Part shown: piece by piece, positions 1,405-4,237 of the stretch
How the letters are laid out: the number at the start of each line of letters is the position of its first letter
Position numbering within the stretch: position 1 is the first letter of the stretch
Source of the DNA: Theionarchaea archaeon
Lineage (GTDB): Archaea > Methanobacteriota_B > Thermococci > Methanofastidiosales > SZ-28-30
Direction of reading: 5' to 3'
Assembly (NCBI GenBank): GCA_018992685.1
Contig: JACVGT010000008.1
Coordinates: forward strand, 67,414-131,413
DNA length: 64,000 bases
The notes under the pieces: model-generated
Databases searched by the model: none
Told to the model about the DNA's origin: nothing
Seen by the model: the letters and a program-made list of their open reading frames with translations, nothing else
Program-made: the position numbers and the translations under genes

Positions 1405-2739
1405 TTATGGCGTGACTGGCTGTTCTGGCCACGGCTGTCCCCGTGTAGCGCACATCCAGGGATCGGGCATGCACACAGTCCCATAGTGCTGAAGCACTCT
1501 CGCTTTGCAGCCGCCTCTGCATTCCTGGACATGAGAACAGGTTCCGCAAGTCATGCTTTCTGTTGTACACTGCCTGAAAGGCTCGAAAATTGGACTGTTC
1601 ATCCAAAGGTACTCCATTGATTCTTCTCTGAGGCTGCCTGCTGTATGCTCAGGACTGCTCAACACAGGACACAGCACCACATCCCCACTCGCAGTCACCG
1701 TCACCATGGACGTCCCCACCCCGCAGAAAGAGTAGGGTGATTCCGTATTCTGCATTTCTGACGCGAATGTGAGCTCTAAACGTTGAGGAGTTTTCTCCTC
1801 AAAGGTCCGACACTGTTGTGATACCTCTTCACCCATTTCCAGAGGCGGAATGAGATGTTCGTGCTCTGTGCCTCTCCCTGCCCCCATGAATCGATCGAAA
1901 ATCATCTCGCGGACACCTAGATCCACCAGCATCTGGATGACGTTGGATAACTCTCCCACATTTTCTGTGTACACCACGGTATTGGAGCGGACCGGTATCC
2001 CATGGTTGACCAGCCGAGTGATACCTTCTACGGTCTTGTCAAAGGTATCCTTCCCCCTGATCTTCTGGTGGAGTTCTCTCGTACCGTCAAGACTTACCAT
2101 GACTTTCTCAGGGTTCAAAGCCTCCAACTGGCACACCGTGTCCTCGGTCAGGAGGATACCATTGGTGAACAGGTTCACCCCAACAGTATTATCCACGATA
2201 TATTCCAGAAGATCGAAGATGTCGCTCCGCAGGAGGGGTTCTCCCCCGGTGACAGCAATGCTCACCACACCCAGAGAAGCCAGTGAGTCTATTGCAGACA
2301 TCCAGTCTGCTGTATCCAATTCTTCCCCATGTGATGTACCTGCTTTCTTGTAGCAGTGAATACAGGTCAGGTTACACTTATTGGTTACCTCAAGATATGC
2401 AATATCAATGGGCCACTCCATCTCACTGCTCTTCATGATGACGGGCACATGCACTGGCTGACTGGAACCGTCCAGAAAATGGAGGTCACGCAGGAAATCA
2501 ATGGACTTTGAAGCCTTGTTCCTCACTCCTCTCTCAGGTTCGCTGTACAGCCCGCACAGTTCCTGTACAAGATCATCAGCTGTCCTTGTGCCGTCGCATA
2601 ATACCAGTAACTCCTTTAAATCCTCATTTGCTTTCCCCTGAATTCTCCTCTTCAAATCCTTTACTAGATATTTCCCCCCTTTTTGCTTCTTGATGACAAG
2701 AGAGCCCGAACTCACCAAATACTCTTTTTCATCAGTCAT
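1405..2739 (-). CDS. Radical SAM/SPASM protein with N-terminal PqqD/RRE-like domain (putative peptide maturase)
   Basis: CNLTCIHC, TGGEPLL, SPASM C-x12-G-x4-C ... Cx2Cx5Cx3C...C. N-terminal LLVLCDGTRTADDLVQEL is PqqD-like. Start moved to ATG 2739 (GGAGG upstream, ATGACTGA overlap with previous stop). Confidence 0.88.
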   Translation of the reverse strand: MTDEKEYLVSSGSLVIKKQKGGKYLVKDLKRRIQGKANEDLKELLVLCDGTRTADDLVQELCGLYSEPERGVRNKASKSIDFLRDLHFLDGSSQPVHVPVIMKSSEMEWPIDIAYLEVTNKCNLTCIHCYKKAGTSHGEELDTADWMSAIDSLASLGVVSIAVTGGEPLLRSDIFDLLEYIVDNTVGVNLFTNGILLTEDTVCQLEALNPEKVMVSLDGTRELHQKIRGKDTFDKTVEGITRLVNHGIPVRSNTVVYTENVGELSNVIQMLVDLGVREMIFDRFMGAGRGTEHEHLIPPLEMGEEVSQQCRTFEEKTPQRLELTFASEMQNTESPYSFCGVGTSMVTVTASGDVVLCPVLSSPEHTAGSLREESMEYLWMNSPIFEPFRQCTTESMTCGTCSHVQECRGGCKARVLQHYGTVCMPDPWMCATRGQPWPEQPVTP

Positions 2740-3784
2740 ATCCATCCTCCCAGCTTGCTGCAGCCAGCATTTGAGACCACGGGATAGCCTCATACGGATA
2801 TGATACCACCTGTTCATCAAAGACCTTCCTGCAGAGGGCAAGAAACCCACGGTGCTGAGGACTGCCGAAATATTCCTGGACCACATCCATCAACGACTTC
2901 TCCCTGATGTTCCCCATGTACAGACGGGGGTTGAGACAGCTGTCAACAGGCACCACATTCCCGTCAGGCAGGATGATGAGCTCCCGGGGATCATTTTCAG
3001 CATGTCTGTGGCATTCTGAGCCAAAGCATGCATATGCATTACAGGGGTGTTCAGTCAGGACCTTCTTGCTGTGGATTCCCATGTATACGCTGGTACTGGC
3101 CAGGTACTGCCCGTACAGCCTCGTGGTGAATTCAGCCAGTTCATCAATTTCCTTTTCAGACAGACAGGAAGATGCAATTTCCCGGGCTCTTCCTCCCACG
3201 AAGAGGGGCTCCAGTTTCAGACTCTCTGCTCCCAGGTCAGAGGCTGTCTCGGCAATCCATTCTATATATGGAAAGCTCTTCTTCGTTACCGTAAACTGGA
3301 GGGCAAAAGGGACATCTTTCTTCCTGAGAGCTTCAATACCCCTCATAGCACTTTGAAATGCACCCTTCATCCCCCTGAAGGTATCATGGTACTCCTGAGG
3401 ACCATCGACGCTGATGAGAACACACCTCACCAGGTCCCGCACTTTTTCTGCCAACTCCTCTGTGATGAGCGTCCCATTGGAAACGAAATCGGGTGAGAAC
3501 CCTTCCTCAACTGCTACTTCCAGGATACGGGTAAGGTCTGGATGCAGGGTAGGTTCTCCTCCTGAAAATGCTATTCGGGTGGTGTTCAGCTTCTTCATGT
3601 CCCTGACTATGGACAAGACCTCTTCTGCAGTGAACTGGTGCACGGGGACGTTCTGAGCATTGATGAAGCAGTGCTGACACGAGAGGTTACACCAGTCAGT
3701 GATATGAAAGAGAAACGTCACTTCCTCTTCAAAAAACCTCAGGGCATGCTGGTGCACACCCTGAGAATCAATCGGGGTTGTCAT
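2732..3784 (-). CDS. Radical SAM protein with atypical Cys-containing C-terminal domain
   Basis: CNLSCQHC, FSGGEP, SNG, ISVDG, C-terminal Cx4Cx4CH. ATG 3784 preceded by AGGTGG. Confidence 0.88.
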   Translation of the reverse strand: MTTPIDSQGVHQHALRFFEEEVTFLFHITDWCNLSCQHCFINAQNVPVHQFTAEEVLSIVRDMKKLNTTRIAFSGGEPTLHPDLTRILEVAVEEGFSPDFVSNGTLITEELAEKVRDLVRCVLISVDGPQEYHDTFRGMKGAFQSAMRGIEALRKKDVPFALQFTVTKKSFPYIEWIAETASDLGAESLKLEPLFVGGRAREIASSCLSEKEIDELAEFTTRLYGQYLASTSVYMGIHSKKVLTEHPCNAYACFGSECHRHAENDPRELIILPDGNVVPVDSCLNPRLYMGNIREKSLMDVVQEYFGSPQHRGFLALCRKVFDEQVVSYPYEAIPWSQMLAAASWEDGYD

Positions 3785-3796
3785 GTACAATCCACC

Positions 3797-3889
3797 TTAG
3801 TATGCAGGCAGCGAAGGCTGCGGCACGATCTTGGTCGCAACAGACTGTATCTTCAGTGCCATGAATTCAGGCATAAATACGTCTTTCAT
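3797..3889 (-). CDS. Putative RiPP precursor peptide B, MKDVFMPEFMALKIQSVATKIVPQPSLPAY (30 aa)
   Basis: SD GAGGTGA 4 nt before ATG 3889, TATA box at 3921-3928, stop 12 nt before the rSAM start, paralogous to the peptide at 4101-4190. Confidence 0.8.
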   Translation of the reverse strand: MKDVFMPEFMALKIQSVATKIVPQPSLPAY

Positions 3890-3920
3890 GGTCTCACCTC
3901 GGTGAGGTATATTCTGAGAA

Positions 3921-3933
3921 CTTATAAATGTTT
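3921..3933 (-). promoter_or_regulatory. BRE/TATA promoter of peptide B plus rSAM operon
   Basis: Minus strand reads AAACATTTATAAG about 32 nt upstream of the ATG. Confidence 0.65.
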
Positions 3934-4051
3934 TGTAGATTGAACATATGTCAGAGATATGAGTAAAAAAAACACCTTCTCCACATGTCATACGGTCCAG
4001 AATAAAAACTCATGAGCAGGGAACAAAGATCGACATACATGCCCAACCCTC

Positions 4052-4069
4052 AGAAAAAAAAGAAAGAAA
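4052..4069 (-). terminator. Oligo-T (archaeal-type) terminator after peptide A
   Basis: Plus-strand A/G tract, i.e. a T-rich run on the minus strand, starting about 30 nt after the TGA at 4101. Confidence 0.55.
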
Positions 4070-4100
4070 TGGACTGCTACCCTGATCACTGGAGAAGAAC

Positions 4101-4190
4101 TCACGGCACAATAATCGAAGGAATAGGCCATTGCTTGATAATGATAGCCTGTTCGTTGTCTACCAAGAACTCGGGTTGGAACTTCTTCAT
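4101..4190 (-). CDS. Putative RiPP precursor peptide A, MKKFQPEFLVDNEQAIIIKQWPIPSIIVP (29 aa; not in ORF track)
   Basis: Translated by hand. SD GGAGGTGA (4197-4204), TATA TTTATAAA (4225-4232), 9 ungapped identities with peptide B. Confidence 0.8.
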   Translation of the reverse strand: MKKFQPEFLVDNEQAIIIKQWPIPSIIVP

Positions 4191-4224
4191 TGAATCTCAC
4201 CTCCCTCCTCTTTCTCACCCTGTC

Positions 4225-4237
4225 TTTATAAATGTTT
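4225..4237 (-). promoter_or_regulatory. BRE/TATA promoter of peptide A
   Basis: Minus strand AAACATTTATAAA, the same 12-mer as the peptide B promoter. Confidence 0.65.

Follow-up and report, generated by a model that had tools for sequence, protein, structure and literature searches.

The window analysed here, a 64,000-nucleotide stretch of contig JACVGT010000008.1 from an uncultured sediment archaeon (Theionarchaea archaeon), contains a cassette of four minus-strand genes spanning 2.8 kb. Two tiny genes without annotation, pepA and pepB, lie upstream of two radical SAM enzymes, rSAM-1 and rSAM-2. A first-pass annotation had placed these four open reading frames (ORFs), and all were recovered at the same positions in the ORF listing of the window. 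The features are given below in their 5' to 3' order on the minus strand.

4225..4232, minus strand: TATA-like box of pepA, TTTATAAA, read from the sequence; putative promoter element
4195..4203, minus strand: Shine-Dalgarno-like element of pepA, GAGGTGAGA, 4 nt 5' of the pepA ATG, present in 3/3 species
4101..4190, minus strand: pepA, candidate 29-aa precursor peptide of the A type (ORF listing; orthologues in sister species)
4052..4069, minus strand: T-rich run 3' of pepA, TTTCTTTCTTTTTTTTCT, possible archaeal oligo-T terminator
3921..3928, minus strand: TATA-like box of pepB, TTTATAAG, with TTTATA unchanged in 3/3 species
3892..3900, minus strand: Shine-Dalgarno-like element of pepB, GAGGTGAGA, 5' of the pepB ATG, present in 3/3 species
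3797..3889, minus strand: pepB, candidate 30-aa precursor peptide of the B type (ORF listing; orthologues in sister species)
2732..3784, minus strand: rSAM-1, 350-aa radical SAM enzyme without RRE (Pfam, invariant cysteines, AF2 model)
1405..2745, minus strand: rSAM-2, 446-aa enzyme with RRE, radical SAM and SPASM regions (Pfam, alignment, AF2 model)
2485..2700, minus strand: RRE of rSAM-2, a predicted PqqD-like winged helix, residues ~16-87 (PF05402, fold model)

The length of rSAM-1 is counted from its ATG, and an alternative TTG start lies at 3790. Because rSAM-2 has two in-frame ATGs, its 5' end is either 2745 or 2739; whichever is used, the gene overlaps the rSAM-1 stop codon (2732-2734). 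The TTTATA core of the pepA TATA-like box is common to all three species of the genus in the alignment. A T-run and a second promoter-like element lie 3' of pepA, which therefore is probably not the operon's leader ORF. The genes flanking the cassette are of the housekeeping type: glycine-cleavage P subunits (assigned by reading the ORF translations), Sec61beta and acetate-CoA ligase (by Pfam/NCBIfam), Rad50/Mre11-like genes and a topoisomerase. The neighbouring ORFs and their Pfam matches revealed no adjoining protease or exporter, in line with the first-pass annotation, and no adjoining immunity gene.

The peptides encoded by pepA (MKKFQPEFLVDNEQAIIIKQWPIPSIIVP, 29 aa) and pepB (MKDVFMPEFMALKIQSVATKIVPQPSLPAY, 30 aa) share an N-terminal M-K-x-x-F-x-P-E-F sequence and carry the cores W-P-I-P-S-I-I-V-P and P-Q-P-S-L-P-A-Y, respectively. 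pepA matched no Pfam or NCBIfam family. Alignment of 16 peptides identified seven columns that are invariant in 16/16 sequences (K2, F5, P7, P23, P25, S26 and P28), and the invariant core motif is P-x-P-S-[ILM]-(xx)-P. Both window peptides are free of Cys, and the core has neither a conserved Cys nor a conserved aromatic residue across the 16 sequences, as had been read from the window peptides at the outset; one non-conserved Cys is present in three relatives. Trp occupies position 22 in 4/16 peptides. The C-terminal residue is Tyr, Trp or Phe in 11/16 aligned peptides and also in the unaligned peptide P0156. In three peptides the invariant third Pro is the last residue, which indicates that the tail following it elsewhere is dispensable.

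Codon comparisons across the genus provide further evidence on the status of these small ORFs. Five comparisons were made, two of which were not significant. Of the differences between pepA and its counterpart in G001, 15/21 are synonymous (P=6.5e-7); pepB compared with the G002 copy gives 16/32 and 14/28 synonymous differences (P about 4e-4 to 7e-4). The two non-significant comparisons are pepB between G000 and G001 (6/16 synonymous, P=0.12) and pepA between G000 and G002 (10/31, P=0.075). Nucleotide identity between G000 and G001 is only slightly higher in the ORFs (77% and 83%) than in the spacers (67% and 72%). When the 3.03-Mb genome was scanned in six frames, the pattern PEF...P.PS near a stop appeared only at pepA and pepB. 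By these sequence comparisons, pepA and pepB are real genes under selection.

The larger of the two enzymes, rSAM-2, matches Radical_SAM (PF04055, 93.9 bits) and SPASM (PF13186, 31.8 bits, cut-off 21.5). Its CxxxCxxC motif (C124/C128/C131) is invariant in 47/47 homologues. In the same 47 sequences no variation is seen at SPASM positions C341, G354, C359, C400, C403, C409 and C413, and conservation of C432 is at least 90%, consistent with the full SPASM motif proposed by the first-pass annotation. The N-terminal RRE proposed there is likewise borne out. The PqqD score of rSAM-2 itself is 16.7 bits (E 0.0093), under the cut-off of 23.4, and PF05402 is detected in 33/47 sequences of its family at E<=0.01 (lowest E 2.5e-7). 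The AF2 model (pLDDT 90.7) places strands at residues 16-20, 26-30 and 35-39, followed by helices at 41-49, 56-66 and 71-87, a beta3-alpha3 domain; the region also gives a weak pairwise match (E 2e-4) to a free-standing PqqD protein encoded in this genome. Family profile and fold model thus agree on a predicted PqqD/RRE fold in rSAM-2. In profile searches against solved structures the top matches of the enzyme were SkfB (4e-39), PqqE (2.1e-37), 5wgg (7e-34) and SuiB (4e-30), all peptide maturases. Its top PDB fold matches are also RiPP maturases, with SuiB and CteB alignments covering 440-459 columns.

The second enzyme, rSAM-1, scores 84.3 bits for Radical_SAM (PF04055) and 20.8 bits for SPASM, barely below the 21.5 cut-off. 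Its homologues form a tight family of 35 proteins (E<=1e-30), and in 35/35 sequences the CxxxCxxC residues C32/C36/C39 are invariant. It carries a single C-x4-C-x4-C auxiliary motif (H-P-C248-x4-C253-x4-C258-H-R) and not a full SPASM; C248/C253/C258 are invariant and C318 nearly so across the 35 sequences. Its AF2 model (pLDDT 90.7) is closest in fold to SkfB, SuiB, CteB and anSME. No recognition domain (RRE) was found in rSAM-1 by Pfam or in the AF2 model.

To analyze how the peptide and enzyme might associate, a complex of rSAM-2 with pepB was modelled. The ipSAE median was 0.68 (runs 0.64, 0.77 and 0.68) and the best of three controls reached 0.01. In the benchmark of the ipSAE mark, 58/80 solved complexes and 2/110 mismatched pairs reach it, a calibration that holds only roughly here because our own alignments were used. 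Contact agreement was at least 73% and partner pLDDT at least 54. In the model, pepB residues 5-12 lie on rSAM-2 residues 36-43 and 63-89, with the lowest-error contacts to residues 36-46, 63, 67, 74 and 84, while peptide residues 19-29 lie within the barrel and SPASM region. The model supports docking of the F-x-PEF leader on the RRE with the core in the barrel, the leader/core division suggested earlier; since solved RRE-leader complexes exist (SuiB with SuiA), the score may mirror those known structures and not binding here.

The distribution of the cassette is narrow. Among reference genomes it occurs only in this Theionarchaea-type genus (3/133 genomes of the phylum), and in 3/3 species of the genus pepA and pepB both lie ahead of the same two enzymes; G002 has a different downstream flank. 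Homologous enzyme pairs are accompanied by similar upstream peptides in 3/3 readable loci, the co-occurrence that the first-pass annotation had put forward as a check. A profile built from six peptides was searched against 1.84 billion proteins and returned 11 further representatives (E 6e-13 to 6e-5) from public metagenome proteins: eight of 30-38 aa, two of 42 and 47 aa, and one 138-aa read-through call. Two of these are tied indirectly to enzyme homologues by peptide and enzyme records that give identically sized contigs. An A-type and a B-type peptide are both found on a 63,618-base contig, the size recorded for one rSAM-1/rSAM-2 homologue pair, and 11 such homologue pairs are linked, again indirectly, by an identically sized longest contig in their records. 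Gene context was read directly in one genus only, and two collection scans gave only relatives of <=33% identity. The host genome contains 46 radical SAM/SPASM-like ORFs and many further small ORFs; across the genus there are about 41-43 rSAM/SPASM matches per genome, compared with 3-11 in its relatives.

Comparison with named families was made with NCBIfam models, and neither enzyme reached any cut-off. The mycofactocin maturase MftC (TIGR03962, cut-off 265) scored 171.6 bits with rSAM-2 and 82.2 bits with rSAM-1, and PqqE of the PQQ pathway (TIGR02109, cut-off 381.35) scored 135.3 and 71.9 bits. AhbD (cut-off 500) gave 143.5 bits with rSAM-2 and 126 bits (E 2.2e-36) with rSAM-1. For the two enzymes, AhbC reached 107.3 and 117.2 bits and NirJ 103.9 and 125.5 bits (cut-offs 500-650), and the SynChlorMet models ScmE 92.6 and 131.7 bits and ScmF 99.3 and 115.4 bits (cut-off 400). 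The anaerobic sulfatase maturase model (TIGR03942) gave 73.2 bits with rSAM-1 (cut-off 349.45). The models for sactipeptide/ranthipeptide systems also fell under their cut-offs (StsB 148.4 versus 625, PapB 68.5 versus 340, SkfB 107.3 versus 300 bits). A sactipeptide or ranthipeptide assignment, dismissed in the first-pass annotation, is equally rejected here: the donor Cys is absent from both window peptides and no Cys column is conserved among the 16 aligned. A streptide-type Lys-Trp link was rejected as well, with Trp22 in only 4/16 peptides and WgkB at 137.2 versus 650 bits. On these profile scores, rSAM-1 and rSAM-2 belong to no named family. The general features of the RRE-dependent rSAM/SPASM class are present (CxxxCxxC, auxiliary-cluster cysteines, an RRE and an adjoining conserved short precursor gene), and our verdict is that the cassette represents a new family within this known class of radical-SAM-modified peptides.

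The four genes probably form a self-contained cassette that yields a radical-SAM-modified peptide in an RRE-dependent manner, and we infer the following order of steps and chemistry. pepA and pepB would each be expressed from their own promoter with a strong ribosome-binding site. The leader M-K-x-x-F-x-P-E-F would bind the rSAM-2 RRE in strand form, against beta-3 and the helices. In this way the core (K)-x-x-P-x-P-S-[ILM]-(xx)-P would be threaded into the barrel, to a site with the SAM cluster on one side and the SPASM clusters on the other, where a 5'-deoxyadenosyl radical would take hydrogen from the core. rSAM-1 could then carry the modification of these peptides a step further, either with rSAM-2 as a docking subunit or by recognising the modified core. 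Our best guess for the chemistry is an aliphatic or heteroatom cross-link via the invariant Ser26, or epimerisation or desaturation of its hydrophobic neighbour, and not a thioether or arene link. A bolder proposal, held only tentatively, is that this is the first archaeal rSAM RiPP family with a Cys-free, aromatic-independent core, in which the RRE-SPASM enzyme and its twitch-like partner would form a bond type new to RiPPs on Pro-x-Pro-Ser-[Ile/Leu/Met]-(xx)-Pro, with the two peptides giving a two-component product. Such a bond could, for example, close a macrocycle between the motif and the conserved Gln15 or Lys20, through the Ser oxygen or an aliphatic C-C/C-N linkage.

It is unlikely, although several observations fit, that the peptides are instead sacrificial precursors of an intracellular cofactor or metabolite, as PqqA is for PQQ and MftA for mycofactocin, and not of a secreted bioactive peptide. 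At 29-32 aa they fall in the size class of PqqA and MftA, and MftC is the best NCBIfam model for rSAM-2 (171.6 bits), with PqqE also high (135.3); both scores nevertheless lie below the cut-offs of 265 and 381.35. In agreement with the first-pass annotation, the window peptides and the 16 aligned sequences lack both the Glu-x3-Tyr motif of PqqA and the mycofactocin C-terminal motif. The housekeeping neighbourhood, with no adjacent exporter, immunity gene or protease, would suit a cofactor, but PqqB/PqqC-like or MftD/E/F-like tailoring genes do not adjoin the cassette either. The frequent terminal Tyr, Trp or Phe (11/16 aligned peptides and P0156) points the same way, whereas the three peptides ending at the invariant third Pro indicate a dispensable tail. 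Presence in all three species of the genus is likewise consistent with a cofactor, yet absence from 130/133 phylum genomes would be odd for a core one, and the upkeep of two diverged paralogous precursors would be unusual.

We give still less weight to the idea that the peptides are real but act as regulatory upstream ORFs or small subunits, the enzymes acting on a target encoded elsewhere. rSAM-1 lacks a recognition domain, and with 46 radical SAM/SPASM-like ORFs and many small ORFs in the genome, cross-talk is conceivable. Against this, conservation extends over the whole peptide, including the C-terminal P-x-P-S far from the start; the T-run and the further promoter-like element that follow pepA speak against a leader ORF; the complex model exceeds its mark, whereas the controls stay at <=0.01; and peptides and enzymes occur together in every readable locus. 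Strongly disfavoured is the possibility that the short ORFs are due to chance and the enzymes are AhbC/AhbD/NirJ-type radical SAM proteins of tetrapyrrole or cofactor synthesis. The best NCBIfam row of rSAM-1 is indeed AhbD, followed by NirJ1, NirJ2 and AhbC, but these scores are far under the 500-650 cut-offs and cover the core domain only (residues about 25-217). Neither enzyme belongs to AhbC, AhbD or NirJ; grouping with such cofactor enzymes was an outcome that the first-pass annotation had named as contrary to its proposal. Furthermore, rSAM-2 has an RRE, and the peptide ORFs are under purifying selection, recur in metagenomes and carry a motif unique in the genome.

Much new enzyme chemistry comes from radical-SAM-modified peptides, and to our knowledge those characterised are almost all bacterial and dependent on Cys or aromatic residues. 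The four-gene cassette is small, has defined candidate substrates and comes with 17 natural variants that mark the invariant positions, and is therefore ready for co-expression and mass spectrometry. The high rSAM/SPASM count of the genus suggests that uncultured Theionarchaea are a so far untapped source of modified peptides.

The closest parallels include cofactor pathways with peptide precursors. Mycofactocin formation involves the precursor MftA, the RRE protein MftB and the maturase MftC, and the cassette shares its ~30-aa precursor, PqqD-type recognition and rSAM-SPASM enzyme; among named models, MftC gives rSAM-2 its highest score (E 2.5e-50, aligned over 9-329 of 339). In contrast to that system, the RRE is fused to rSAM-2 and not a separate protein, a second radical SAM enzyme is present, the Val-Tyr C-terminus is not conserved and no MftD/E/F-like genes lie nearby. 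The PQQ pathway likewise pairs a PqqD fold as peptide-binding module with an rSAM-SPASM partner, and PqqE (6c8v) ranks second among the solved relatives in the sequence-profile search (2.1e-37); the peptides here, however, lack the Glu-x3-Tyr pair, and neither pqqB nor pqqC is present.

By fold, both enzymes match best SkfB (6efn), SuiB (5v1q/5v1t), CteB (5wgg/5why, which we take to be this enzyme) and TigE (8vpo), at sequence identities of only 14-23%. rSAM-2 shares the N-terminal RRE, barrel and SPASM layout of SuiB and CteB, and rSAM-1 appears to share the single-auxiliary-cluster layout of SkfB. The substrates SkfA and CteA use Cys, SuiA uses Lys-Trp and the TigE substrate uses Ile in a TIGSVS motif; none of these key residues or motifs is conserved in the present peptides.

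Among archaea, CrpC of Methanococcus voltae, an rSAM-SPASM enzyme with a predicted RRE, modifies the product of the neighbouring gene, CrpA, placing ranthionine thioethers on a large cysteine-rich protein, and in the parts of the literature consulted it was the only archaeal rSAM-SPASM case found with biochemical demonstration (PMC13692751). According to a survey preprint, attempts at activating archaeal rSAM clusters failed (10.1101/2024.10.07.616454). The candidate substrates here differ from CrpA in being 29-30-aa Cys-free peptides. In gene content, the cassette resembles that of thuricin CD, where the diverged paralogous precursors TrnA and TrnB are retained alongside a pair of radical SAM enzymes, TrnC and TrnD. 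That bacterial sactipeptide contains Cys-to-alpha-carbon thioethers and is served by dedicated transporters, whereas the archaeal cassette has neither a conserved Cys nor a transporter. By analogy, the shared pairing of two paralogous precursors with two radical SAM enzymes suggests a two-component product.

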